From Escherichia phage vB_EcoM_G5211: DNA of 64,000 bases. The stretch lies in sequence record MK327947.1, one strand, 5' to 3'. The translations under genes and the position numbers were made by a program. The notes beneath the pieces were generated by a model. The model was not told the DNA's origin. It ran no database searches and was given only the letters and a program-made list of their open reading frames with translations. How positions within the stretch are numbered: position 1 is the first letter of the stretch; every line of letters starts with the position of its first letter. Of this stretch, positions 44,298 to 58,670 are shown piece after piece.

Positions 44298-44305
44298 TAT
44301 AAATA
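44298..44305 (+). promoter_or_regulatory. late promoter TATAAATA for gene 34
   Basis: exact TATAAATA about 30 nt upstream of ATG, followed by AAGGAG RBS. Confidence 0.6.
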
Positions 44306-44333: not shown

Positions 44334-47300
44334 ATGGCAGATTTTTCTCAACATTTCAAGGCCACATTTGGCTTTGACGCTGGTAATGAAAAGGTCGTCA
44401 ATGTAGCATTGGCTGATAAGAATGTCAACACCGATGCGGTCAACGTTGAATTTTTCAATTACCATAATGGTATTACTCAGTATGACGCAACTCGCGGTTA
44501 TGATCAATACGGCACTACAATCTATCAAAACCGTCCGTATTATGCAAAAGAAGATATCACAAAACCAGCAGGTGATTTTGACCCGACTAAATGGCAAGCA
44601 CTGCGCACGGACCCACGTTGGGATTATGTTGCAGCAACTTCCGGCGATACTCCTTTAAAGTCCGGTGATTATATCGCAGCGGACTGTCAGTTTGCAAACT
44701 TGACATTCTCAATGCCTACAAATCCGGTAGAGGGCGACAATATAACAGTAAAAGATATCGGTGGCAAGTGCGGTGTTAATGAGTTATCGTTCCTTTCGGT
44801 TGGTCATGAGTTCTATCATAATGGTGTGGTAAACAACCGCAAATGGTACTGTACTACCCCTTATGCAATGAACTACTTCATTTTTGTTCGCAATCGCTGG
44901 CACGTTTACCAGACGGGAACGGAGCCACGCGGGGTATATGCACAACCATCTATCGACCCGATCCAGATGCAAAACGGTGATCAGGTATTCCGCCGTAGTT
45001 CTTTGGGTAACATTGTTTTGATGCTTCCTAAGTTTGCTAATAACGGTGATATGATCCAGACTACCGATCTTGACGGATTGACTGCAACCAACCATGTTAC
45101 GGTAAAAGTGCATGAAGGTGCGCAAGAACAATCGATCGGTACTTTCGGGGTAAAAGAAATTGTTGGTAAGCGTAGCGGTCATGGTGTATTCATATTTGAC
45201 AAACCGGAAAACTTATGGCGTTTGTGGGATGGTGATCAGTCTGTTCGCTTGAATCCTATCATTAGTGATACTCGCTTGTCCCCCAATAGCTATGTTGCAG
45301 TATTTGGTGATCGTGATGTTACCTTGACTTTACCGACCAGCGTCGAGCATGGTGATCGTATCCAAATTTCTATGCAGTATATGCACGGAAACCAGAATTG
45401 CCGAATCGTTACCGCAGAAGAGGATACAAAAATCCTTATGCAGAAAAACATGGTTCAGTTTCCTAAGCGTAGCGAGTACCCGTTCAATGGGACCGATACA
45501 TGGAAGGAAGTGTCTGAATTGTCTTTCAACGCTGCAAATGATTATGTACCTTATCTGGAGTTCTCTTATTCAGAAGGTGATGATGGTAAGAAACACTGGT
45601 TGGTAGCACATGCTCACCCGATCGTAGAACGAGTAGATCCGACTCGTAAAGAGCGTGTTGGTGTTATTGCGCTTGCAACACAGGACGAAACCAACAAAAA
45701 CCATGAAGATAATCCTAGCGACGAAGTTGCAGTAACGCCAAAAATGCTTGCCAATAAGACTGCAAACGAAACGCGTCGAGGTATTGCTAGAATCGCTACT
45801 CAAGAAGAAACGCACCAACATACAGGGGCAAATTTTCTTGATGATGTGATCGTAACTCCTAAAAAACTAAATGCGTGTGTTGCTTCCGAAGAACATCGAG
45901 GCGTGTTGGAGATTGCAACTCAGGAAGAAACCAACGTAGGTTTAGACGATACACGCGCAATCACCCCTAAGAAATTAGAGGAACGTCGCGCGTCGGAAGA
46001 CCTTGCTGGTATCGCTGAAATTGTTCAGATGGGTGGTAGTGCTGCCGCTCGACGTGGCGAAGCTGGTACAGGGGTCTATAACATCAATGACCATGCTAAA
46101 ATCGTTACACCACAAAACATCAACGAAGTTAAGGCGACCGAAACTTCCCGTGGTGTTGGTTATCTGGCAACTGACGCGGAAGTGCAAGGGGCTACAGAAG
46201 CAACCCCGCAAGATGCAATGCTGATCACTACTCGCACGTTAACCAAGCGTACTGCTACCGAATCGCGTACTGGTATCGCTGAAATTGCTACGCAGGAAGA
46301 AACTAACTTAGGCCAGAGTGATAACCATATCATCACGCCTAAAAAGCTGCATACTCGCCGCGCAACTGAAACTTTACATGGTTTAGCAGAAATTGCAACT
46401 CAGCCGGAATTTGACGCAGGTCGTGACGATGCTCGCATTTCTACTCCATTGAAGATTAAAACCTTCTTTGAGAAAGCACAGCGTTTGAGAGTAGATCCGA
46501 ATCAGGGGCTTAACCTTACGGGTGATTTATGGCAAGGTATCACGATCAGCGGTCTTGATGCAACCGAAGATACAAAAGGTGTCGCGAAAGTTGCTACTAG
46601 TCAGCTTACCGATGTGGGAGAAGATGACGCCACGATCATTACTCCTAAAAAGCTGCAAGGCAAAAAGGCCACCGAAGATAAAGAAGGTATTATCAGAGTT
46701 GGTACTCAAGCCGAAACCGTCGCTGGTGCACTGGACAATGTAGCAATTTCTCCGAAGAATTTCAAATATGTTGTCCAGACAGAGGATACATGGAAAGCAA
46801 CCGAAGCGCGTCGTGGATTCTTGAAAGTTGCTACTCAGGAAAACTGTTTTGTTGGCGATAATCTGCAAGGTTCTACTCAAGAGCTTGATGAATATCAGCA
46901 TGATGGGATTGCGGTAACTCCGAAAGGATTAAACTACGCACTTGCTAATTTCTTACCTAAAATGGCAACCGCTCAGAATAGTTTGAAATTGGGTAACGTA
47001 GAGGCCGCTAAATGGGCGCGCAGAGACATTGACCAGACCATTGAGAGCAATTACACGTTTAATAAAAACGTTAACGTGAAGGGCGATTTAGAGTGCTTAA
47101 AATCCGGTTCCTTTGAAACTCTGTTTGTGACTAAGAACTCGACTGACGATCCGAGTAATGGTCATCTGGTATTGGGTGAGCGTGGAGTTGACGGTCACAC
47201 CGGAATTACTCTGCATGGCACAACCTTGTCAGAAGGTATGGAAAACTCATGGTCTATTATCGTTGGTGGCACTGGAACGGCGCAAGCAGTTAATAGTGAT

Positions 47301-48074
47301 GCTATCGCTTTCTGTAAGATTGACGATTCTGGATCTGTTGAACATTATGCCTTTGCTATGGAACGTGACGGCGATGCGTTAGCATATAGAGACTTCATAG
47401 CAGGTCGTAACCTGTATGCGAAGCAAGGCGGTTTATATATTGTAGACCACTCCAATCCGGCAATGACTCGCTCTCCAGACGGTATGTTGAATATCGGTCA
47501 CGGTGGAAGTGTTAACATCAAAGCAGGTTATCAGAATCTGACTACAGAGATCGCTGGGCAGAAATATCAGATCGTACACGCAGGAAACGCTGACGAAGTT
47601 CTTAACCGTCAGTTTGTTAAGAATGCTGGCGATACAATGGTCGGTAAGCTGATTATGGATAATGCGCCTATTGTTTCTGTTAAGCATGAAGCTAGCGCGG
47701 CAACCGCTCCGGCAATCGGTAACATCGGTTTCTGGAACATGCGAGTAACTACCCAAAACATCAAAGAAACCTATCCAGAGAAGAAAAACGGCACATTGAT
47801 GCAATGGGGTACTGATGAAAACGGCCTTACCCAAATCTGGTCACCTGATGGTACTCATAAGCATTATATCCGTTCCGGTACAGATGGTCAATGGACCGCA
47901 TGGGGCGAAATTTACACCAAACAGAACAAGCCTACCGCTCAGGAAATCGGGGCAGTGGTTGCCGAAGGTGGTTTGATGAACTCTATGACGGTTCGTGACT
48001 GGATCAAGGTTGGTAATGTTAAAATTATTGCCAATAATCTGACTCGTACCGTAGATTTTATCTGGGAAGACTAA
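44334..48074 (+). CDS. 34: gp34 long tail fiber proximal subunit
   Basis: Colinear with T4 gp34 (N-terminal RGY/NVALAD, repeated ATxExRRGIAxIATQxE motifs, C-terminal WIKVGNVKI). Confidence 0.9.
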   Translation: MADFSQHFKATFGFDAGNEKVVNVALADKNVNTDAVNVEFFNYHNGITQYDATRGYDQYGTTIYQNRPYYAKEDITKPAGDFDPTKWQALRTDPRWDYVAATSGDTPLKSGDYIAADCQFANLTFSMPTNPVEGDNITVKDIGGKCGVNELSFLSVGHEFYHNGVVNNRKWYCTTPYAMNYFIFVRNRWHVYQTGTEPRGVYAQPSIDPIQMQNGDQVFRRSSLGNIVLMLPKFANNGDMIQTTDLDGLTATNHVTVKVHEGAQEQSIGTFGVKEIVGKRSGHGVFIFDKPENLWRLWDGDQSVRLNPIISDTRLSPNSYVAVFGDRDVTLTLPTSVEHGDRIQISMQYMHGNQNCRIVTAEEDTKILMQKNMVQFPKRSEYPFNGTDTWKEVSELSFNAANDYVPYLEFSYSEGDDGKKHWLVAHAHPIVERVDPTRKERVGVIALATQDETNKNHEDNPSDEVAVTPKMLANKTANETRRGIARIATQEETHQHTGANFLDDVIVTPKKLNACVASEEHRGVLEIATQEETNVGLDDTRAITPKKLEERRASEDLAGIAEIVQMGGSAAARRGEAGTGVYNINDHAKIVTPQNINEVKATETSRGVGYLATDAEVQGATEATPQDAMLITTRTLTKRTATESRTGIAEIATQEETNLGQSDNHIITPKKLHTRRATETLHGLAEIATQPEFDAGRDDARISTPLKIKTFFEKAQRLRVDPNQGLNLTGDLWQGITISGLDATEDTKGVAKVATSQLTDVGEDDATIITPKKLQGKKATEDKEGIIRVGTQAETVAGALDNVAISPKNFKYVVQTEDTWKATEARRGFLKVATQENCFVGDNLQGSTQELDEYQHDGIAVTPKGLNYALANFLPKMATAQNSLKLGNVEAAKWARRDIDQTIESNYTFNKNVNVKGDLECLKSGSFETLFVTKNSTDDPSNGHLVLGERGVDGHTGITLHGTTLSEGMENSWSIIVGGTGTAQAVNSDAIAFCKIDDSGSVEHYAFAMERDGDALAYRDFIAGRNLYAKQGGLYIVDHSNPAMTRSPDGMLNIGHGGSVNIKAGYQNLTTEIAGQKYQIVHAGNADEVLNRQFVKNAGDTMVGKLIMDNAPIVSVKHEASAATAPAIGNIGFWNMRVTTQNIKETYPEKKNGTLMQWGTDENGLTQIWSPDGTHKHYIRSGTDGQWTAWGEIYTKQNKPTAQEIGAVVAEGGLMNSMTVRDWIKVGNVKIIANNLTRTVDFIWED

Positions 48075-48080
48075 TTAAAA

Positions 48081-48098
48081 GGGGGGCGAAAGCCCCCT
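48081..48098 (+). terminator. hairpin after gene 34 (weak U-tract)
   Basis: GGGGGGCGAAAGCCCCC. Confidence 0.35.
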
Positions 48099-48109
48099 AT
48101 GGGGTTATT

Positions 48110-49249
48110 ATGACACAAGAAATAGAATTACGCAATACTGGAATTAAGTTTGCGCATTTCGACGAAGACTCCGCGACATTTACAAGCATTTCAGAAAACA
48201 ACTCTGTGATGTATAAGCTGGAAGTGCGCGGATCTAATGCGGATTCTTCCAAACCAGCAAGGATTAGATTTAATGGAGTGGAGATCGTCGGGACTGGCTA
48301 TGAGACTGGCCTAAACTTTAAAGTTTTTACTCCAACTGGACAATTGCACGAAGAAAAGGTATTCTATGGTCGTGGTGCTGTATTGGCAATGCGTGATTAT
48401 CTTTATTTGCTGAAAGGCGACTATATCATTGCGATGGCAACGCATGGAGAATTGTTTGCAGATCCGATAAGTGATGATATATTTTCTAAGCTGGGATCTG
48501 TATCATTCCCGAATCACATTTTGTTACAGCAAATGCCTCGTGTGTCATATGCTGCAATTTATTCTACTAAAATGGGTAAAATTGTGTGCGAAGGGATGCA
48601 AGCAACGCACGGAGAAGGTCAAGATTCGTCTATACAAATTGAGAAGGTTTATGATACTATAGATGATCTTGCGGTCACAGGAACACCACAACGATTTTTA
48701 GATTATCCGGTTGAGTATGTTAGCGAAGATGCCGAACATTTCGAGCTAATACAATGGCCTCATGATGAGATCAGCGCACCACTTGAATATTTTAACATAA
48801 AGGCAGGTGACAAACTATCAATATCCTTTGAATTGTTCCGTGATAGTGCCGCAGCCGCAGCCAACGTAACAGCGCGTTTCTATCACAACTACTTCACTGA
48901 TGGACAATATCAAACTGGCGTTCGTTATAATGCCAGCCAGAAAGATCAATGGGAAAAGTTTGAAGCCGTCTATACCGTACCGGAAGGAGTTGATAGTGTA
49001 GTAACTGGTTGTATCAGATATCCAACCAACTCCAATGAAGGTGTTGTTAAGGTTAGAAACATACTAATAACGCCGATCAGTGGAGTCGTCAAAACTACTG
49101 GTCCTACTTCATTTGGTGTTAATGGTGTTAGAACAACTCATATTCAGGATAACGGTGATTTTACTAACCCTGTAATGAGTCTTCTTAAACTGCCTAGAGA
49201 TAATAAACACATCACATCCAACAACTTTAAAGAGTTCGATGTTGATTAA
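48110..49249 (+). CDS. 35: gp35 long tail fiber hinge
   Basis: Size and position between 34 and 36. Confidence 0.7.
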   Translation: MTQEIELRNTGIKFAHFDEDSATFTSISENNSVMYKLEVRGSNADSSKPARIRFNGVEIVGTGYETGLNFKVFTPTGQLHEEKVFYGRGAVLAMRDYLYLLKGDYIIAMATHGELFADPISDDIFSKLGSVSFPNHILLQQMPRVSYAAIYSTKMGKIVCEGMQATHGEGQDSSIQIEKVYDTIDDLAVTGTPQRFLDYPVEYVSEDAEHFELIQWPHDEISAPLEYFNIKAGDKLSISFELFRDSAAAAANVTARFYHNYFTDGQYQTGVRYNASQKDQWEKFEAVYTVPEGVDSVVTGCIRYPTNSNEGVVKVRNILITPISGVVKTTGPTSFGVNGVRTTHIQDNGDFTNPVMSLLKLPRDNKHITSNNFKEFDVD

Positions 49250-49260
49250 CATTTTTAACA

Positions 49261-49283
49261 AGCCGATCCATGTGGTCGGCTTT
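49261..49283 (+). terminator. hairpin + T-run after gene 35
   Basis: AAGCCGATCCATGTGGTCGGCTT + TATTTTT. Confidence 0.6.
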
Positions 49284-49410
49284 ATTTTTATACAGTTGGT
49301 TAAAACATAACCAAAACGAAGAAAGATCTTTAGAATAATAGAAAATTTGTTTCGGCTAAAAAATAGTCAGTGCCTACGGCACGTCGCGAAGCGATATTTT
49401 GTTAACATTC

Positions 49411-49418
49411 TATAAATA
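49411..49418 (+). promoter_or_regulatory. late promoter TATAAATA for genes 36-37
   Basis: exact TATAAATA 34 nt upstream of gene 36 ATG. Confidence 0.6.
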
Positions 49419-49451
49419 CTCGGAACTATAACTAATTTTTGAGGTTACTTT

Positions 49452-50942
49452 ATGGCAGATTTGAAACATGGATCTACTGTAGGCGGATCTCCCATTTGGA
49501 CGCAAGGAAACTTGACGATCCAGCCAGCGGGTGATCAGCTTTTCTACAAAGGTCATAAAATCTATACCGCTTTTGATAAACCTTCGGCTGCCGATTTTGA
49601 TGCTGTTAGTGCATCCGAAGGGGGTACATTTCAGAAACTGGTCCATTTTGAGGAAGGTTTAAGCGTAGGTAGCGCATCCGGTGGAGAAACCAAAAAGAAC
49701 GGGATCTTTAAAGGCAATAGTGATGCGGCTAACTTTGACGGTGTAAGTTGGGGTTTGCATTCGTGGAAATCTATTGGTTTTGTTAATGCTCGTGATGATG
49801 TTATCATGGCTTATATTGACACTACCACAGGTGATTTTAAAACTAAAGGGACCATCGAAGGGACAACCATTAAAGACACAGGTCAACGCGTCTATAGCCC
49901 TGTTAATAAACCAACGAATAATGATTTAGATTTGGTGTCTCGTCGCGGTGATACCCTCACAGGAACATATAATTTAAACACTGTCACTGTTAAACTATCG
50001 GTTGATTCGAAATTAATTGCAAGGGAACGTGATTTAATTAATTTTGATGCGACTAAGATCTATTATGGTAACGTTCTTGATACGTTGGTCTTCCGAAGTA
50101 AAGATGAGCCTACCATTTTTGTTAATGGCAGAGAAGGTCGTTTTTATCACACCAACAATAAACCAACTAAAGCCGATGTTGGGCTAGGCAATGTCACCAA
50201 TGATGCACAGGTTAAACGTGCTGGTGATATTATGGAAGGTAACTTGCAAGCGCCTAGAATGTTGGCGACAAACGATCCGGCTGGTCCTAATGAATTGGTT
50301 CGTTTGAGCTACTTTGAGAAAAAATCAATGGTAGCAAATCCAACCATCATAGGAAACGTTGATTGGAACACTCTTATTAATCGCGGTATCTATCGTGTGG
50401 AAAATGCTGGGTCAGGTACTAATAAACCGTCTGATAGCTATTATAACGGCGTTTTGATGGTATATCGCCCAGAAGATGCGGTCGGTACTCGTCGAATTGT
50501 TCAGGTATACTATCCTGAATCTATTGATCATCCGATGTGCTGGCGTTCTTGTTCTAATGAATCATGGACTGCATGGAACTATGTAGATCACCGTAAATTG
50601 GCTGATATTCGCTATGTTAACGTCACTGGCGATACCATGACAGGACCGTTAACTGTTCCGGCGGCAAATGGCGTTCATACCGCAGAAGCTAACTATAATG
50701 GTGATAATTGCTACGCTGGACTTAATAGCTTAAATGGCACAGCAATGATTCATCGTGTTAGTGATATTAAAGCGCACGAGAAACTAGGCATCACACATGA
50801 TTCTAAAATTATTTTCGTTAAATCACGCAACAATACTCAGGACACCGATACATTTGAATTATACCACGAAGGACACAAACCAACTCCTGATGATGTTGGC
50901 GCTGTTCCGCTTAATGCGGTAATTGATTTTGGTACTTTCTAA
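49452..50942 (+). CDS. 36: gp36 long tail fiber distal connector (enlarged, 496 aa)
   Basis: N-terminus MADLKxGSTxGGSxIWxQGN as in T4 gp36. Confidence 0.8.
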   Translation: MADLKHGSTVGGSPIWTQGNLTIQPAGDQLFYKGHKIYTAFDKPSAADFDAVSASEGGTFQKLVHFEEGLSVGSASGGETKKNGIFKGNSDAANFDGVSWGLHSWKSIGFVNARDDVIMAYIDTTTGDFKTKGTIEGTTIKDTGQRVYSPVNKPTNNDLDLVSRRGDTLTGTYNLNTVTVKLSVDSKLIARERDLINFDATKIYYGNVLDTLVFRSKDEPTIFVNGREGRFYHTNNKPTKADVGLGNVTNDAQVKRAGDIMEGNLQAPRMLATNDPAGPNELVRLSYFEKKSMVANPTIIGNVDWNTLINRGIYRVENAGSGTNKPSDSYYNGVLMVYRPEDAVGTRRIVQVYYPESIDHPMCWRSCSNESWTAWNYVDHRKLADIRYVNVTGDTMTGPLTVPAANGVHTAEANYNGDNCYAGLNSLNGTAMIHRVSDIKAHEKLGITHDSKIIFVKSRNNTQDTDTFELYHEGHKPTPDDVGAVPLNAVIDFGTF

Positions 50943-50946
50943 TTCT

Positions 50947-50965
50947 AGCGGGGATTATCCCCGCT
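50947..50965 (+). terminator. hairpin + T-run after gene 36
   Basis: AGCGGGGATTATCCCCGCT + TTTCT. Confidence 0.5.
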
Positions 50966-51009
50966 TTTCTAAATAATATTATTCTAACAACCGTTAAGGA
51001 TTTTATAAA

Positions 51010-53790
51010 ATGGCAGATTTACAGAGAATCCAATTTAAAAGAACAAGTACGGCAGGTCGCAAGCCGGATGCGAATATTCTAACTCCGGGTGAACTTGCTA
51101 TTAACCTAGCGGATCGAGAACTATATACAAAAGATGACAGCAATAATGTAATTACTTTGGGACACTTTCGCGGTGAGTTGCCATCTGATGCAAATTTAGA
51201 TAATTATGGACCTACTGGTAAATTTACTGGCGTTTGGTCTAAATCAACTTCAACAAATGCGCAGCCAGCAAATAAATTCCCAGAAGAGAATGCTGTAGGT
51301 GTATTAGAAGTATTTGTGGCTGGTCAATTTGCTGGCACTCAGCGTTATACTGTTCGGTCTGGTAACGTTTATATCCGTTCTTTGTCTGCGAAATGGAATG
51401 GCGTAGATGGTCCATGGGGTCCGTGGCGCAATATTCAAACTGGCACACGTCCACTATCAACTACACTAGACTTGAATACTTTAGGTGATGCTTCTCATTT
51501 TGGGTTATGGCGAAATAGTTCAAGTTCCATTGCATCATTTTCTCGAAATTACCCAGAAGAAGGTGGTCTCGCGCAAGGTCTTTTAGAAATTTATGAAGGT
51601 GGTAACTATTCTCGCACGCAACGTTATACTACCCGAATGGGTGTTGTATATGTTCGTTGTCTTGCTGGTGCATGGGATCCAGAAGCTCCGAATTGGGGAC
51701 CGTGGCAACAAGTAGGTATGGTTACTCCCAACACATTCTATGACGGGGATCTTAATAATTTTCGTTCTCCTGGCTTATATAATATTTTAGGCACTGATGC
51801 CGTTATTAACCGTCCAGTTGCAGAAGGTGTTCCGGTTGAGATGACCGGATTGCTTGAGGTTAAACAGCGTGCTTCCGGTGGCGCTATTTTCCAACGTTTC
51901 ACTACCGCAGGAACGGGATCTACTACCCGTGGTCGTGTTTTTGAACGTGCAATGACAAATAATATCTGGGGAAATTGGCATGAAGTATATACATCTTATT
52001 CTCTGCCAATTACTTTGGGTATGGGTGGTATTAAAACTCAATTAGCGGAGCTAGATTGGCAAACATTTGATTTTGTTCCTGGTAGTATGTTTAGCGTTCC
52101 TTTGAACAAAATAAAGAACATGCCAGCAAATATGGATTGGGGTGCGATTGACGGAAACTTGGTTATGTTTTCTGTCGGTCCTAGCGAACACACTAGCACA
52201 GGGCGTACTGTTCAGGTTTGGCGTGGTACTGTATCCCAGACAAACTACCGTTATTTTGTCGTTCGTGTGTTCGGTAATTCTGGAAATAGAACTTGTACAG
52301 TTCGCCGTGTTGTTCTTGAAGACGGATCACATACTTGGACTGCTAAACAAGATTTTAATGGTGCTGTCAACTTTGGTGGTTCGACAACTTTTAAGTCCAC
52401 TACAACTTTTAACACAGAAGTTAAATTCCGTTCATCCAATGCATTTAAAATGTATGGCGGTAATTTTGGCACAATTTTCCGTAATGATGGTGAAAGTCTT
52501 TATATTCTTTCCACCGACGAAAATGATCAAGATGGAAACTTTAATACAAATAGACCTTTCCGCTATCAATTAAAAACTGGCGATGTTACTTTGGGTGGCA
52601 CTAGCGGTGCTAACGCTTTAGTATTAAAAGGCGGTTCTCTTGCTGCTACCTTTAGCGGTGATGTTAATTTAAGTAAAGGTACGCTGACGTTTGAAGCGGG
52701 TGGTAAGCAATCACGCGATTATTTCCGGTTTAATCATTGGGGTGATAGCAATAACGCTCGTGATAACATTATTCAGTTAGAAGATAGTAAAGGCGCTCAT
52801 TTTTCCACTGAACGTACTTTAGCGACTGGTGCAATTAAAACTAAATTCTTTGGTGAAGTTGAATCAACTGGTCGATTGACTATTAAACGTCCGGGTGGTG
52901 CTATTGTATTATCGACTACAGCCAGCAACGCTTTGCATATTCGCGGTGACGTAGACGGGAATGGTAACTGGTATATTGGTAAAGGTGGTGCTGATAATTC
53001 GCTAGCATTTTATAGCTATGCTACTCAGGCGGCAGTACATATAACAAACAATGGTGAGATTGCGTTAAACCCGCAAAATACCTTAATGGTTAACGTTAAC
53101 CGCGATCGTATGTATATCAATGGTGCAAGTTGGGTTGCCAGACAACCAGGTGATTGGGGCAACCAATGGCGAGTAGAAGCTCCATTATTCGTTGATCATG
53201 GTTATGTTGGTCAAGATAGTTATTATCCTATTCTTAAAGCAAGAAGCGTTATAACCAATCAAGGATATAGCACCGCTGTTGACTTTGGTATGCGTCGTAT
53301 TCCATCACAGTGGGGGCAAGCAATCATTCGTGTCGGATCCACGGAGGCTTCTCCTGATGCTGGACACCCACAAGCTGTGTTTGAATTCCATCATGATGGG
53401 TTCTTTTATACACCAGGAAATGGTAGCTTTAGCGATGTGTATATTCGTTCTGACTCCCGTCTTAAGATTAATAAAGAAGAGTTAGAAAACGGAGCACTTG
53501 AAAAAGTATGCCGTCTGAAAGTTTATACTTACGATAAAGTTAAGTCTATTAAAGATCGTAGTGTGATTAAACGTGAAGCTGGTATTATTGCTCAGGATCT
53601 TGAAAAAGAATTGCCGGAAGCTGTATCTAAAGTTGAAGTTGATGGATCTGATGTTCTGACAATTTCTAACTCGGCAGTGAATGCTCTTTTAATTAAGGCT
53701 ATTCAGGAAATGAGTGAAGAAATTAAAGAATTGAAAACTCCTTTCTTTACTAAAATTGCTCGCAAAATTAGTAAATATTTTAAATTCTAA
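51010..53790 (+). CDS. 37: gp37 long tail fiber distal subunit with C-terminal intramolecular chaperone domain
   Basis: N-terminus MADLQRIQFKR..GELAINL..TKDDS like T4 gp37; C-terminal ~113 aa carries SDxRLK ... AGIIAQDLEKELPEAV (peptidase S74-type chaperone signature). Confidence 0.85.
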   Translation: MADLQRIQFKRTSTAGRKPDANILTPGELAINLADRELYTKDDSNNVITLGHFRGELPSDANLDNYGPTGKFTGVWSKSTSTNAQPANKFPEENAVGVLEVFVAGQFAGTQRYTVRSGNVYIRSLSAKWNGVDGPWGPWRNIQTGTRPLSTTLDLNTLGDASHFGLWRNSSSSIASFSRNYPEEGGLAQGLLEIYEGGNYSRTQRYTTRMGVVYVRCLAGAWDPEAPNWGPWQQVGMVTPNTFYDGDLNNFRSPGLYNILGTDAVINRPVAEGVPVEMTGLLEVKQRASGGAIFQRFTTAGTGSTTRGRVFERAMTNNIWGNWHEVYTSYSLPITLGMGGIKTQLAELDWQTFDFVPGSMFSVPLNKIKNMPANMDWGAIDGNLVMFSVGPSEHTSTGRTVQVWRGTVSQTNYRYFVVRVFGNSGNRTCTVRRVVLEDGSHTWTAKQDFNGAVNFGGSTTFKSTTTFNTEVKFRSSNAFKMYGGNFGTIFRNDGESLYILSTDENDQDGNFNTNRPFRYQLKTGDVTLGGTSGANALVLKGGSLAATFSGDVNLSKGTLTFEAGGKQSRDYFRFNHWGDSNNARDNIIQLEDSKGAHFSTERTLATGAIKTKFFGEVESTGRLTIKRPGGAIVLSTTASNALHIRGDVDGNGNWYIGKGGADNSLAFYSYATQAAVHITNNGEIALNPQNTLMVNVNRDRMYINGASWVARQPGDWGNQWRVEAPLFVDHGYVGQDSYYPILKARSVITNQGYSTAVDFGMRRIPSQWGQAIIRVGSTEASPDAGHPQAVFEFHHDGFFYTPGNGSFSDVYIRSDSRLKINKEELENGALEKVCRLKVYTYDKVKSIKDRSVIKREAGIIAQDLEKELPEAVSKVEVDGSDVLTISNSAVNALLIKAIQEMSEEIKELKTPFFTKIARKISKYFKF

Positions 53791-53794
53791 CAAC

Positions 53795-53813
53795 AAGGGG
53801 GCGTTGCCCCCTT
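53795..53813 (+). terminator. hairpin after gene 37
   Basis: AAGGGGGCGTTGCCCCCTT. Confidence 0.5.
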
Positions 53814-53826
53814 TGGAGTATAAATT

Positions 53827-53940
53827 ATGGCAGTAGTTGGTGTTCCTGGTTGGATTGGAAGTTCAGCCGCAAATGAAACAGGACAACGATGGATGAGTCA
53901 AGCGGCTGGTCAATTAAGATTGGTGTTCCTTGCTGGATGA
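53827..53940 (+). other. 38: out-of-frame N-terminal coding segment of gp38 (apparent -1 frameshift)
   Basis: GGAG RBS then ATG 53827 encoding [32 protein letters not shown], ending at TGA 53938; downstream gp38 body is in the -1 frame. Confidence 0.6.
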
Positions 53941-54626
53941 GTCAATTTGCAGGTCGCTCGCGAGAAATTATTCATACTGTAGGAGCAAACCACAATTTTA
54001 ATGGTCAGTGGTTCCGTGATAGATGCTTTGAAGCTGGCGGTGCACCTATTGTATTCAATATTGTTGGTGATATCGTTTCTTATTCTAAAGATGTACCGCT
54101 TTTCTTTATGTATGGTGACACTCCTAACGAATACGTTGTCCTTAATATTCATGGTGGTGTCCATATGTGGGGTCGAGGTGGTAATGGTGGATACACTCAC
54201 TCAGGTGGAGATGGTAACGGTACACAAGGCGGTCATGTTATTCAAAATGATATCGGTGGACGGCTTCGTATTTGGAACTACGGTGTTATAGCTGCTGGCG
54301 GTGGTGGCGGTGGTGGTATTGCATATCGTCCACACTCAGGGGCAAACTGGCAAGATATCGGTGGCGGTGGCGGTCGACCTTTCGGTGGTGCTGGCGGTGG
54401 CGGTTATTCCGGTGGTGCTGCTTCTTATGAAGGTCCGGGTGGTGGTTACAACTATGGTAACGCACACTCCGGCGCGGGTGGTAATGCTGGCGCTGCTGGT
54501 CAGAATGCATGGTCTGATGGCGGTAAAGTTCTTAAAGTTGGTGTTGGTGGTGCTTCTGGTCATGCCGTGTTTGGATCTTCTCCAACTTGGGGCGCTGTAG
54601 GGACAATTTATGGACCTTACATTTAA
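53889..54626 (+). CDS. 38: gp38 receptor-binding adhesin, T2-type (glycine-rich motifs); N-terminus as drawn is probably not native
   Basis: Multiple poly-Gly tracts ([21 protein letters not shown]) separated by variable segments; conserved [13 protein letters not shown]...[15 protein letters not shown] attachment region. Confidence 0.75.
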
Positions 54627-54685
54627 CCGTTAAAAAAGAATTAAGGAAAAATCCCAGGGAAGGGAACTACTAAGGAGAAACGGCT

Positions 54686-54925
54686 ATGGTCTATAATATC
54701 GTCATTGGTGCTTTGTCTAATTTCGGAATGAAATTATTGTCAAAGTTAATTAGTGAAAAGATGCTCACTAAAATTTTCTTCTATTGCGCTCGTCGTCTTG
54801 CGGCTTATACCAATACGCCAATTGATGATCGTTTTGTGGAAGAACTTTATAAGGAGTTTAATAAAGATCAGTCAGAAGATAGTAACGAGCAAGATAAACC
54901 TAGTGATAGTCAACTACCTAAATAA
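54686..54925 (+). CDS. hypothetical protein
   Basis: AAGGAGA RBS; 79 aa. Confidence 0.5.
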   Translation: MVYNIVIGALSNFGMKLLSKLISEKMLTKIFFYCARRLAAYTNTPIDDRFVEELYKEFNKDQSEDSNEQDKPSDSQLPK

Positions 54926-54958
54926 GAGTACACTGTCATAGTTATCTTAGGGCATTAT

Positions 54959-55615
54959 ATGCAAGTTTCTGAAAAAGGGAAAGACTTTGCTATCTCAAAT
55001 GTCCTGCGCGCTATTTTCACAACTAAAAGCACGGAGTTGCTCGTACTTCGTGTTTTTGCTGCCGTCGTGTTGTCCATATTAGCATTTGTCGTTTATAGTA
55101 AAAACGAGTTATTTGCGCTTTATAAAGAGACTCGTTATGAGACTTATGCTCACATTCTCCAGGTAGAGAAAGACCGCAATTTTGATAATGCAGCACAGGA
55201 GCAGTTACAGATAGTTCATGTGTCGGCTGATGCCGATTTTTCTGCTGTTTTTAGTTTTCGTCCGAAAAACCTAAACTATTTTGTTGATTTGGTGGCATAT
55301 GAAGGAAAGTTACCGCATACAATCGATGAAAAAAATTTAGGCGGATTCCCTATCAATAAAACGAGTGAAGAATATCGTAGGCATCTTTTAGGTAAATCAT
55401 ATTTTACCGATAAAGATTTCCAGTATATTCCATCAAGAGAAAAGAAATTAGAGAATATCGATATAGGGTTTATGTATTCTTGCCCTATATTCAATCTCGA
55501 TAATGTCTATTCTGGTAGTATCGCCATTGCATGGAAGAATAAACCGGATATTGACATTGAGAATTTAGATACTCTTTGCAATCAATCTGCCAGAATCCTC
55601 GGAAGGATTAGATAA
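54959..55615 (+). CDS. t: holin T
   Basis: Colinear with T4 holin T (single N-terminal TM, LQIVHxSADADFSAVxSFRPKNLNYFVDxxAYEGKLP, MYSCPxFNLDN, ARILGR). Confidence 0.9.
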   Translation: MQVSEKGKDFAISNVLRAIFTTKSTELLVLRVFAAVVLSILAFVVYSKNELFALYKETRYETYAHILQVEKDRNFDNAAQEQLQIVHVSADADFSAVFSFRPKNLNYFVDLVAYEGKLPHTIDEKNLGGFPINKTSEEYRRHLLGKSYFTDKDFQYIPSREKKLENIDIGFMYSCPIFNLDNVYSGSIAIAWKNKPDIDIENLDTLCNQSARILGRIR

Positions 55616-55649: not shown

Positions 55650-55898
55650 TTATTGGCGCATAGAAGCCCCTGAATCACATTTTGACGCTGTATGATGAAA
55701 ACAGGTAGCGTACCAGTCATCGGCTTGTTTGTCTTCGTCAGAAAACGCGTAATTGCGTTGTATGCCGTTTTCTACTTTGACCAGTGCAATAGCTGTTTCT
55801 GGAAGATCAATCAATCGGACAAAATCACCATCTTCCCACTCTACACGAGCAATATCATAGCCCATCTCAACGTATACAATCGCTTGTTCTAATTTCAT
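55650..55898 (-). CDS. hypothetical protein
   Basis: ATG overlaps upstream stop (ATGA). Confidence 0.45.
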   Translation of the reverse strand: MKLEQAIVYVEMGYDIARVEWEDGDFVRLIDLPETAIALVKVENGIQRNYAFSDEDKQADDWYATCFHHTASKCDSGASMRQ

Positions 55899-57911: not shown

Positions 57912-58670
57912 TTACTTGCAAACGTATTGATCTACATCAATTGCGCCACCGAATGTAGGATGACGTTTTTCAAATCTAATAGTTCCGTCGTTTGGTTCGA
58001 AAACGGAGTATTCATATAGATCTTTCTTGCCAACATTCTTATAAAACCCGCCTTTAGTCATAACGGTTTCTTGTACGTTTGCTTTGTGTACGTTGTATTC
58101 GTCAATGTATACAAAATCAACCATCTTCCCATTTTTAATGGTTACTTTAAGATCTCCTGGTTGATTTCCATATTTTGCATACAGTGGCGCTTCTTTAATT
58201 TTTGTGGAAATTCCATCTTTCATACTCCACTCATAACGAACGGTGCATTGATAGGTAAAAGTTTCGACCTTCGGTTCTTCTACCACTTTTGCTTCCTGTT
58301 TCGGTTGTTCTTCTTCAACCTTCGCAGAAGTCTCTGAATCGCTTTCTGACGCGGTTTCTTCTTTAGGTAATACGTTCATCAAGTTTTGGATTTGAGCGTT
58401 GTATACAGCCTCCAGTGGCTGAATCTGCCCGATATTGATCATTGTATCACGAACAGTTTTATTCCAGTTTCGTTGCTCTTGTTTCAGAGACGGATCAATC
58501 TTAACAGCCTTAACATACACCTCATGAAGTTTAGAGTCCAGTGCGGAGATAGACTCATTAGCACAAATAAACTTCTCTGATTTGGTAGTAGCTTTAGCGC
58601 AATCAAAGGACGCAGCGTTAGCACCGAAAGCAGTAGCAGAAAGAACGATAGCAGCGATAATGTTTTTCAT
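57912..58670 (-). CDS. secreted DUF1311 (LprI-like) domain protein
   Basis: Signal peptide MKNIIAAIVLSATAFGANA; FDCAKATTKSEKFICANESISALDSKLHEVY...QRNWNK matches the DUF1311 pattern. Confidence 0.55.
   Translation of the reverse strand: MKNIIAAIVLSATAFGANAASFDCAKATTKSEKFICANESISALDSKLHEVYVKAVKIDPSLKQEQRNWNKTVRDTMINIGQIQPLEAVYNAQIQNLMNVLPKEETASESDSETSAKVEEEQPKQEAKVVEEPKVETFTYQCTVRYEWSMKDGISTKIKEAPLYAKYGNQPGDLKVTIKNGKMVDFVYIDEYNVHKANVQETVMTKGGFYKNVGKKDLYEYSVFEPNDGTIRFEKRHPTFGGAIDVDQYVCK

Follow-up and report, generated by a model that had tools for sequence, protein, structure and literature searches.

The locus at positions 51010-54626 of Escherichia phage vB_EcoM_G5211 (MK327947.1) raises two questions: which kind of receptor-binding tip does it encode, and is this tip encoded intact? 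The window analysed is a 64,000-nucleotide stretch of this record, in which the original prediction had recognised a T2-type gp37-gp38 receptor module. This classification proved right in kind, but gp38 is not encoded here as a single intact gene. The features of the locus are collected in Table 1.

Table 1. Features of the gp37-gp38 locus (positions in the window)
Feature	Position	Strand	Evidence
Gene 37, long tail fibre distal subunit, 926 aa + stop	51010..53790	+	ORF list; PHROG; Pfam
DVYIR codons, aa 809-813, predicted last strand of mature gp37	53434..53448	+	alignment with S16 gp37
C-terminal intramolecular chaperone domain (Peptidase_S74), aa 814-926	53449..53787	+	Pfam PF13884, alignment
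GC hairpin GGGGGC-GTT-GCCCCC in the 36-nt g37-g38 spacer	53797..53811	+	sequence, RNA fold
5' fragment of gene 38, 37 codons + TGA	53827..53940	+	translation; Pfam Gp38_N
Main gene 38 ORF, 245 aa + stop	53889..54626	+	Pfam GP38, PHROG, PDB matches, AF2
Frameshift site, GG versus GGG in G2494 (1-nt deletion)	53922..53923	+	alignments with MK327935
gp38 specificity region, glycine-rich motifs alternating with hypervariable segments	54153..54560	+	Gly-run map; alignment with 14 adhesins

Identity of the locus and proposed mechanism

With a probability of roughly 90%, the locus belongs to a Krischvirus-like E. coli phage and encodes the distal receptor-recognising tip of its T2/S16-type long tail fibre. 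Tip modules of this type are well studied and already known, and this one is a textbook T2/S16-type receptor-binding tip. The classification of the module is supported by all tests run: the S74 profile and its dyad, the GP38 profile, the layout of glycine tracts and hypervariable segments, the fold match to S16 and PP01, and the g37-g38-t gene order. In the window, this order reads g37 - g38 - orf79 - holin t, with g38 placed directly 3' of the chaperone-ended gp37 and upstream of t.

The mechanism is established for the family, and autocleavage, docking and the receptor are assigned to this locus by homology. Folding of three gp37 chains into the fibre would be assisted by the 113-residue chaperone domain at the C-terminus of each. 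After trimerisation, Ser814, activated by Lys819, would cut between Arg813 and Ser814, and release of the chaperone would expose a triangular tip formed by three DVYIR strands. A single gp38 monomer would then dock by inserting W9, W22 and W37 (numbering of the intact protein) into three equivalent gp37 pockets, with each helix of the N-terminal gp38 bundle providing one of these tryptophans. Such a fit of three conserved tryptophans on gp38 helices 1-3 into three gp37 pockets has been described (PMC6851490 section 2.7). The remainder of gp38 would form a beta-helix bearing a polyglycine sandwich, whose hypervariable loops between the glycine tracts would bind an outer-membrane protein.

T4 has genes of the same names at the same genomic position, but in that phage gp38 is a chaperone unrelated to the adhesin and not part of the virion, and receptor binding is done by gp37 (PMC6851490). 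A T4-type arrangement here, in which gp38 is an assembly chaperone that leaves the fibre and the gp37 tip binds the receptor, is echoed by database records that name some homologues 'distal long tail fiber assembly catalyst'. This alternative is already effectively refuted: the protein matches the adhesin family PF05268 as well as the S16 and PP01 adhesin structures, the gp37 C-terminus is not a T4-like needle tip but an S74 chaperone, and gp37 has no significant match to T4 gp37 tip structures.

The gp37 chaperone domain

Gp37 matches the PHROG family phrog_1699 'long tail fiber protein distal subunit' (E 7e-189) and carries the Pfam domains Gp34_trimer (aa 462-518) and Peptidase_S74 (aa 814-872). 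The S74 domain lies at the extreme C-terminus and takes up the last 113 of the 926 residues of this distal fibre subunit. Searches with PF13884 scored 45 bits for whole gp37 and 49.8 bits (E 4.3e-13) for the 113-aa tail alone, above the curated (gathering) cut-off of 22 bits, so that the HMM check suggested with the original prediction gave a clear match. The predicted C-terminal domain of ~113 aa, with SDxRLK and a second motif, was likewise found: counted from S814 (nt 53449, where its start had been placed), it has 113 residues and contains SDSRLK at aa 814-819 (Ser814 codon 53449-53451, Lys819 codon 53464-53466) and GIIAQDLEKELPEAV at aa 858-872 (nt 53581-53625).

The Ser/Lys dyad, five residues apart in the pattern S-D-x-R-x-K (S814-D-S-R-L-K819), sits at the N-terminal edge of the domain. 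The residues D, R, K, G-IAQ and P do not vary when gp37 is aligned with S16 gp37, MyRF and the phage fibre 8jov. Endosialidase-type chaperones (PF13884; K1F endosialidase, T5 pb1, MyRF) share the profile, the S-D-x-R-x-K dyad and the G-x-IAQ motif, and are likewise found at the C-terminus of a trimeric fibre, but outside the core their sequence similarity to gp37 is only distant. Another difference is that release of the domain would here create a docking site for a second protein, which goes beyond simple fibre maturation.

Autocleavage is predicted between R813 and S814 (nt 53448|53449), where DVYIR^SDSRLK aligns with DLNVS^SDRRIKK of S16 gp37 (6F45_A). The S16 cleavage site and its 113-aa chaperone have been published (PMC7917993) and map onto DVYIR^SDSRLK. 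The same paper discusses the site DVYIR^SDGRLKI of the fPS phages, and the tip strand DVYIR in the window is identical to theirs. As cleavage is a step derived here from the sequence, the S74 domain might instead be a non-cleaving relic that stays on gp37. This is very improbable, since Ser814, Lys819 and the surrounding invariant residues are all intact, the domain is 93-96% identical among normally infecting phages (Sf21, KMB43), and in S16 the surface on which gp38 docks becomes accessible only once the chaperone has left (PMC7917993).

The gp38 adhesin body

The 245-aa ORF begins with 11 out-of-frame residues, followed by the third Trp motif, the beta-helix and the polyglycine sandwich with its receptor-binding loops. 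Its aa 26-244 match positions 1-217 of the 218 in the Pfam GP38 profile (PF05268; E 1e-65, 222 bits), and its match to phrog_2056 covers profile positions 29-266 of 267. The AF2 model has a pLDDT of 86.8, falling below 50 over aa 1-22, and in Foldseek the only PDB matches with E <1 were 9V85 and 6F45_D (TM 0.77-0.87), which are the gp38 structures of PP01 and S16, respectively.

PP01 gp38 is the best solved-structure match, with a sequence E-value of 5e-62, 58% identity over the model alignment and a TM of 0.79-0.87 for its receptor-binding domain. Its hypervariable segments 1-4 nevertheless differ strongly from those of the window, and its receptor is OmpC of E. coli O157. The S16 gp37-gp38 tip (PDB 6F45; Dunne et al. 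2018) has the same architecture, in which a gp37 with a 113-aa autocleaved chaperone is joined by a gp38 monomer that comprises an attachment bundle with three Trp, a beta-helix and a polyglycine sandwich (sequence E 5e-36, model TM 0.77). Here too there are differences: gp38 identity is ~40%, the tip strand is DLNVS in S16 and DVYIR in the window, and the hypervariable loops are not the same. The receptor of S16 is Salmonella OmpC.

Glycine makes up 26.9% of the 245-aa ORF and 36% of its C-terminal 150 aa, compared with at most 10.5% in every other window ORF of at least 150 aa. The poly-glycine tracts that had been predicted to separate variable segments could be mapped as G7 (54297-54317), G5 (54360-54374), G4 (54393-54404) and G3 (54438-54446). 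In alignments of 15 and 45 sequences, the glycine columns are invariant and the stretches between them variable. The accompanying proposal that the loops between these tracts determine host range agrees with the view taken in the literature (PMC3157838, PMC12032242) and with the related Krischvirus KMB43, which differs exactly in the part of the specificity region at 54320-54545, where its sequence is replaced.

A frameshift at the start of gene 38

The closest relative of the module is found in vB_EcoM_G2494 (MK327935.1, Krischvirus; G2494_00257 and G2494_00258), hereafter G2494. Over 50412-55309 of the window (4,898 bp), a block that spans the gp36 C-terminus, gp37, gp38, orf79 and the start of the holin gene in the same order, the two phages are identical base for base except for one missing G. 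Outside this block, identity is only 86-98%.

Relative to MK327935, this missing G splits gp38 into two ORFs. The first, which opens at the annotated gp38 start of MK327935 (ATG 53827, preceded by GGAG) and closes at TGA 53938-53940, encodes attachment-domain helices 1-2 with Trp9 and Trp22 and ends in an out-of-frame VFLAG. It matches Pfam Gp38_N (PF21721) over profile positions 1-30 of 40 (E 3.6e-16). The long ORF opens at ATG 53889 in a different frame and is unable to extend upstream because of a TGA at 53874-53876. A Gp38_N search of its 245 aa gave no match, and it keeps the third conserved Trp only. In G2494, the intact 266-aa gp38 carries Gp38_N (E 1.5e-19) and GP38 in one polypeptide. 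The attachment domain is thus present in the DNA but out of frame, one base away from the intact domain of G2494. The Trp-rich attachment region expected of such a gp38 was therefore recovered at the level of DNA, but most of it is missing from the ORF as encoded, with two of the three conserved tryptophans in a separate ORF. The frameshift had been overlooked in the original prediction. Because W9 and W22 are cut off from the body of gp38 by the deletion, proper docking is not expected of the encoded 245-aa product.

The deletion probably reflects a sequencing, assembly or editing error, which is favoured over a genuine null mutation. The absence of any other difference from the 4,898-bp block points to an error or a very recent event. 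Both domains (Gp38_N and GP38) are present in 116 of the 120 gp38 homologues among the matches listed, and the four exceptions include no precedent for a short N-terminus. One of them, P0087 of FL18 (237 aa), has a mis-called start; it is the only exception that was checked in DNA, where the sequence is intact from an ATG upstream of the called start. The other three (P0038, P0086 and P0108) begin at an internal Met. The 34-38-mers bearing the deletion were absent from IMG/VR, metagenome and genome collections, while the intact version of the string occurs in one IMG/VR contig; an exact look-up of the 245-aa product found no record. No further gp38 copy at another site, as in RB49, that could serve as a backup was found in the window, and G2494 has a single matching place.

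That the deletion is real, and gene 38 a recent null or hypomorphic allele, is unlikely. The fibres would then lack an adhesin or carry a poorly attached 245-aa product of internal initiation at ATG 53889, which is preceded by a plausible Shine-Dalgarno sequence (AGGA, 5 nt upstream). Compared with G2494, gp38 is the only annotated gene with a broken frame in ~63 kb, and the remaining indels, checked over 16.7 kb, all lie between genes. The assembly is therefore not generally error-prone, and the care this suggests speaks for a real deletion. The affected run is GGG only, not a classic homopolymer error site, which counts against a simple error. The deletion also makes the third Trp motif (53920-53930) identical over 11 nt to the first (53837-53847), 83 nt upstream. 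Such quasi-repeats can template real frameshifts, but read mapping or polishing could just as well be misled by this one. Adsorption is not expected of a T2-type phage whose fibres have no docked adhesin, and such a genome should therefore not dominate a propagating stock. In addition, two of the three conserved tryptophans are missing from the 245-aa product, disorder is predicted for its first 22 residues, and the deletion is found in no other public sequence.

It is highly improbable that the frameshift is both genuine and tolerated, either with the product of ATG 53889 docking through a single Trp prong or with the 37-residue peptide and the 245-residue body reassembling non-covalently on the gp37 tip. 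If true, this would mean that a three-prong attachment bundle can function split or reduced. Programmed frameshifting was rejected, as no slippery heptamer is present in A-AGA-TTG-GTG, the sequence at the site, and transcriptional slippage would need a longer run than GG.

The significance of the finding is small outside annotation, and save for the missing G the module is already in GenBank base for base (G2494). Before this genome serves for purposes such as host-range prediction or phage therapy, its gp38 gene should carry a flag for the frameshift.

Receptor prediction

The type of the adhesin predicts an OmpA receptor, and OmpA is the most probable candidate. When the variable segments were compared with adhesins of known receptor, as had been suggested, by percent identity they grouped with those of FL08 and AV119, which are experimentally OmpA-dependent (PMC12032242), and not with the Tsx, OmpF, OmpC or type 2 OmpA groups. 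Over aa 116-266 (151 residues, G2494 numbering), identity to these two is 81-82%, against 41-50% to all other adhesins of known or different type compared and 46-50% to the T6, FL18 and M1 types. OmpA appears likely because the receptor-binding half is this close to adhesins of OmpA-dependent phages. The call is made by nearest neighbour, at ~81% identity. The R in IAYR(P/V)HS and an 11-residue segment are conserved with FL08/AV119.

A different receptor, such as Tsx, OmpC, OmpF or FadL, is a weaker alternative that still deserves weight. Identity to the OmpA type 1 adhesins is 81-82% and not 100%, the closest adhesins (Sf21 97%, wV7 83%) have no receptor assignment in the literature examined, and point changes in the hypervariable segments can switch the receptor, with single substitutions reported to do so (for example, RB68 Q206L; bioRxiv 10.64898/2026.04.02.716166). 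Against this, all four hypervariable segments are collinear with those of FL08/AV119, with nearly identical length and motif; one 14-residue segment closely matches IAYRVHSGANWKDI of these phages and a 13-residue segment is identical. Segments of the Tsx type (T6, KMB43) and OmpC type (PP01) are unalignable in places, and adhesin phylogeny has been found to predict receptor use (PMC12032242).

The type 1 OmpA-binding gp38 of FL08 and AV119 (Lutz et al. 2025, PMC12032242), whose hypervariable segments equal those of the window in length, differs in other respects. Its N-terminal attachment region is of a K3-like subtype (52-57% identity to the window type in aa 1-46), and it is paired with a different gp37 tip in a Tequatrovirus backbone.

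Mosaicism of the module

The module is mosaic, through modular exchange of a known kind. The gp37-gp38 module is 86% identical to a Tequatrovirus cassette and lies within a Krischvirus backbone. Gp37 residues 1-54 are specific to this backbone, and the cassette common to Tequatrovirus phages begins at about codon 55 (nt 51172), where the blastn boundary against Sf21 also falls. The locus shows exchange on three scales: transfer of the entire gp37-gp38 cassette between genera, sharing of a 4.9-kb block by two Krischvirus lineages, and replacement of hypervariable segments within gp38.

Spacer and promoters

A scan for sigma-70 promoters returned fewer sites than shuffled sequence. Matches to TATAAATA, the consensus of T4 late promoters, were found upstream of g34 (44298) and g36 (49411) and not before g38, and they are no more frequent in the window than expected by chance. 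RNA folding of the whole 121-nt spacer region gave a structure that is not unusually stable (z -1.24). A hairpin similar to that in the g37-g38 spacer is present at the same position in phage FL18.

The receptor module and its chaperone

A T-even long tail fibre module, recognised from the ORF list and from Pfam and PHROG matches, occupies the plus strand of the window at 44334-55615. The original prediction placed a T2-type receptor module within it, at 53449-54626, comprising a gp37 C-terminal chaperone domain and a glycine-rich gp38. The first of these positions is the first base of the gp37 Ser814 codon, and the last is the end of the gp38 stop codon.

Features of the tail fibre module and its surroundings (window positions)
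Feature	Position	Strand	Remarks
gp34	44334-48074	+
gp35	48110-49249	+
gp36	49452-50942	+	496 aa, unusually long
gp37	51010-53790	+	926 aa
gp38-like ORF	53889-54626	+	245 aa
Trp motif 1	53837-53855		attachment domain
Trp motif 2	53890-53911		attachment domain
Trp motif 3	53920-53955		attachment domain
79-aa ORF	54686-54925	+	between gp38 and holin t
Holin t	54959-55615	+
G2494-identical block	50412-55309		one indel; gp36 C-terminus, gp37, gp38, 79-aa ORF, holin start
TATAAATA, two copies	44298-44305; 49411-49418		just upstream of g34 and g36
GC hairpin	53797-53811		g37-g38 spacer
Tad2-like ORF	55650-55898	-	82 aa
LprI-domain ORF	57912-58670	-	252 aa

Peptidase_S74 (PF13884) matches gp37 at aa 814-872 with 45 bits for the whole protein, and the 113-residue tail alone scores 49.8 bits (E 4.3e-13), against a curated cut-off of 22. 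Both of the chaperone motifs named in the original prediction are present, SDSRLK at aa 814-819 and GIIAQDLEKELPEAV at aa 858-872. Aligned against this tail, the C-terminus of Salmonella phage S16 gp37 (PDB 6F45) gives E 2e-5, and a second phage fibre (8jov) and the autoprocessing domain of MyRF align less strongly. Residues conserved without exception in all four are the S-D Asp, the Arg, the dyad Lys, G-x-IAQ and one Pro. In S16 gp37, the last 113 residues form an autocleaved chaperone, cut at DLNVS^SDRRIKK, which has been aligned with DVYIR^SDGRLKI of other T-even phages (PMC7917993). The window reads DVYIR^SDSRLKI at the corresponding site, so the predicted cut lies between Arg813 and Ser814 (nt 53448 and 53449). 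Cleavage there would leave DVYIR as the mature tip strand and release a peptide of 113 residues.

A database protein from an E. coli assembly, outside the window (P0074, 303 aa), has the first ~155 gp38-adhesin residues fused to a gp37 tip and S74 chaperone (…NDVYIRSDRRLKIN…). Either recombination between g38 and g37 or misassembly would account for it.

The body of the 245-aa ORF is equally recognisable, matching Pfam GP38 (E 1e-65), PHROG 2056 'tail fiber protein; host specificity' (E 1e-92) and the solved structures of the PP01 gp38 receptor-binding domain (9V85, E 5e-62) and S16 gp38 (6F45_D, E 5e-36). Its AlphaFold2 model, built with 45 homologues as input, has a mean pLDDT of 86.8, and the only meaningful Foldseek PDB matches are again 9V85 (TM 0.79-0.87) and 6F45_D (TM 0.77). 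Glycine makes up 26.9% of the ORF and 36% of its C-terminal 150 residues, with mapped G7, G5, G4 and G3 tracts, compared with at most 10.5% in all other window ORFs of at least 150 aa. When 15 or 45 adhesins are aligned, the glycine columns do not vary, in contrast to the intervening stretches; Trojet et al. (PMC3157838) and Dunne and Leiman (PMC6851490) describe the same alternation of glycine-rich motifs with hypervariable segments. Given the S74 profile and dyad, the GP38 profile and the S16/PP01 fold match, the T2/S16-type reading was correct; the observation itself is real and lies far beyond chance. The system itself is already known, and an identical form is already in GenBank.

A frame break in the gp38 attachment domain

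One fact is new, and the original prediction missed it: in this copy, the loss of a single base disrupts the reading frame of the gp38 attachment domain. The closest public genome, Escherichia phage vB_EcoM_G2494 (MK327935, Krischvirus; 96.6% identity over 22 kb), has an annotated gp38 of 266 aa whose start ATG corresponds to window position 53827. Sequence alignment places the loss of one G of its GGG at 53922-53923. In the window, the frame from 53827 meets a TGA after 37 codons. The long ORF uses a different frame and opens no earlier than ATG 53889, a TGA at 53874-53876 blocking any upstream extension; its first 11 residues are unrelated, and the family sequence resumes after them. In Pfam, the intact G2494 gp38 hits Gp38_N (PF21721, E 1.5e-19) as well as GP38. 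Of the 40 Gp38_N positions, the window's 37-codon ORF retains 1-30 (E 3.6e-16); the profile does not match the 245-aa ORF.

In the S16 structure (PMC6851490), the gp37 trimer offers three symmetry-equivalent pockets, which receive three conserved Trp from the apex of helices 1-3. Here, W9 and W22 lie in the 37-codon ORF, leaving only W37 in the 245-aa ORF, the first 22 residues of which are predicted to be disordered in the AlphaFold2 model. The attachment domain is visible in the DNA as three quasi-repeats (53837-53955), each encoding one of the conserved Trp, in keeping with the three-fold symmetry of the gp37 tip.

The deletion is most readily read as an artefact (probability roughly 0.65). 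It is the sole difference from G2494 in a block of 4,898 bp, and both domains are present in 116 of the 120 gp38 homologues listed, the four exceptions being FL18, with a mis-called start (checked in the DNA), and three proteins starting at an internal Met. The deletion-bearing string was not found in IMG/VR, metagenome or reference-genome collections, and an exact protein look-up found no record of the 245-aa product. Moreover, phages of the T2 type are not expected to propagate unless an adhesin is docked. Each of these points speaks for either an error or a deletion that arose very recently. However, sloppy assembly is disfavoured: gp38 alone is frame-broken among the G2494-annotated genes over the ~63 kb compared, and base-by-base alignment of 16.7 kb places the other indels between genes. 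A real null or hypomorph is a possible but clearly less likely reading, and a deletion that is both real and functional is very improbable. The deletion makes the start of Trp motif 3 (53920-53938) match motif 1 over 11 identical nt, a quasi-repeat that could have templated a real slip or misled read mapping or polishing. Programmed frameshifting was ruled out, as the sequence has no slippery site. The frame break needs verification before the MK327947.1 sequence is used.

Mosaicism and the likely receptor

Against Tequatrovirus phage Sf21, the sole long nucleotide similarity in ~19 kb is 51172-54616 (86% identity), which begins at gp37 codon 55 and ends with gp38; of the neighbouring genes, gp34-36 and the holin barely align. 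This pattern indicates a cassette that crosses genera, the junction falling just after the gp36-binding gp37 N-terminus, which stays with the backbone. Outside the 4.9-kb identical block, identity to G2494 is only 86-98%, which suggests that two Krischvirus lineages recently exchanged the receptor module by recombination. Krischvirus KMB43 resembles the window throughout, save for the hypervariable segments at 54320-54545, which in KMB43 are of a T6/Tsx-like type.

Among the few genomes compared, the gp38 N-terminal subtype co-varies with the gp37 tip/chaperone subtype. The gp37 C-terminal 140 residues are 93-96% identical among the window, Sf21 and KMB43 (FL18, 34%), and the gp38 N-terminus 98-100% (FL18, ~28%). 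Such co-variation agrees with the lock-and-key pairing that Trojet et al. described (PMC3157838); the layers of exchange and the co-variation are known behaviour of this locus.

Over the receptor-binding part (aa 116-266 of intact gp38), the window adhesin is 97% identical to that of Sf21, 83% to wV7, 81-82% to FL08 and AV119, and 46-50% to T6 (Tsx), KMB43, FL18 (type 2 OmpA), M1 and Ac3. Receptor deletion mutants showed that FL08 and AV119, with 'type 1' adhesins, need OmpA, and receptor use followed adhesin phylogeny (PMC12032242). From this proximity, OmpA is the best guess and somewhat favoured as the receptor, with the caveat from the literature that single substitutions can switch receptors.

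Other features of the module and its neighbours

gp36 is more than twice as long as that of Sf21 (216 aa), the Pfam T4 gp36 profile matches it only over aa 62-153, and its N-terminus, over ~75 residues but chiefly the first 40-56, matches the N-termini of several gp37-type fibre PHROG families. The distal half-fibre is therefore divided differently in this genus. In gp37, aa ~70-330 (51220-52000) contain three tandem ~75-residue repeats with a pattern like G(L/V)LE(V/I)...QR(Y/F)T...W, which at aa 72-296 match a PHROG annotated as 'tail collar fiber protein'.

The T4 late-promoter consensus TATAAATA, no more frequent in the window than by chance, was not seen upstream of g37 or g38; its position before g36 suggests that g36-g37-g38 form one late transcription unit. 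Phage FL18 carries a hairpin similar to that of the spacer (GGGGGC-GTT-GCCCCC) in the corresponding place (L006 1414-1431). For the 79-aa ORF, the profile searches gave PHROG 402 (unknown function) but no Pfam family. T4 and Sf21 have nothing at this site. In RB49, a small unknown ORF was reported at the usual place of g38 (PMC3157838), and the 79-aa ORF may be that same backbone gene.

Just past the holin gene, the 82-aa ORF matches the Pfam Tad2-like (Thoeris anti-defence 2-like) domain (E 8e-7, 29.9 bits, cut-off 25), making it a candidate anti-defence gene. Further downstream, the 252-aa ORF carries a Pfam LprI (lysozyme inhibitor) domain (E 1.4e-5, 25.8 bits, cut-off 22) and a signal-peptide-like N-terminus.
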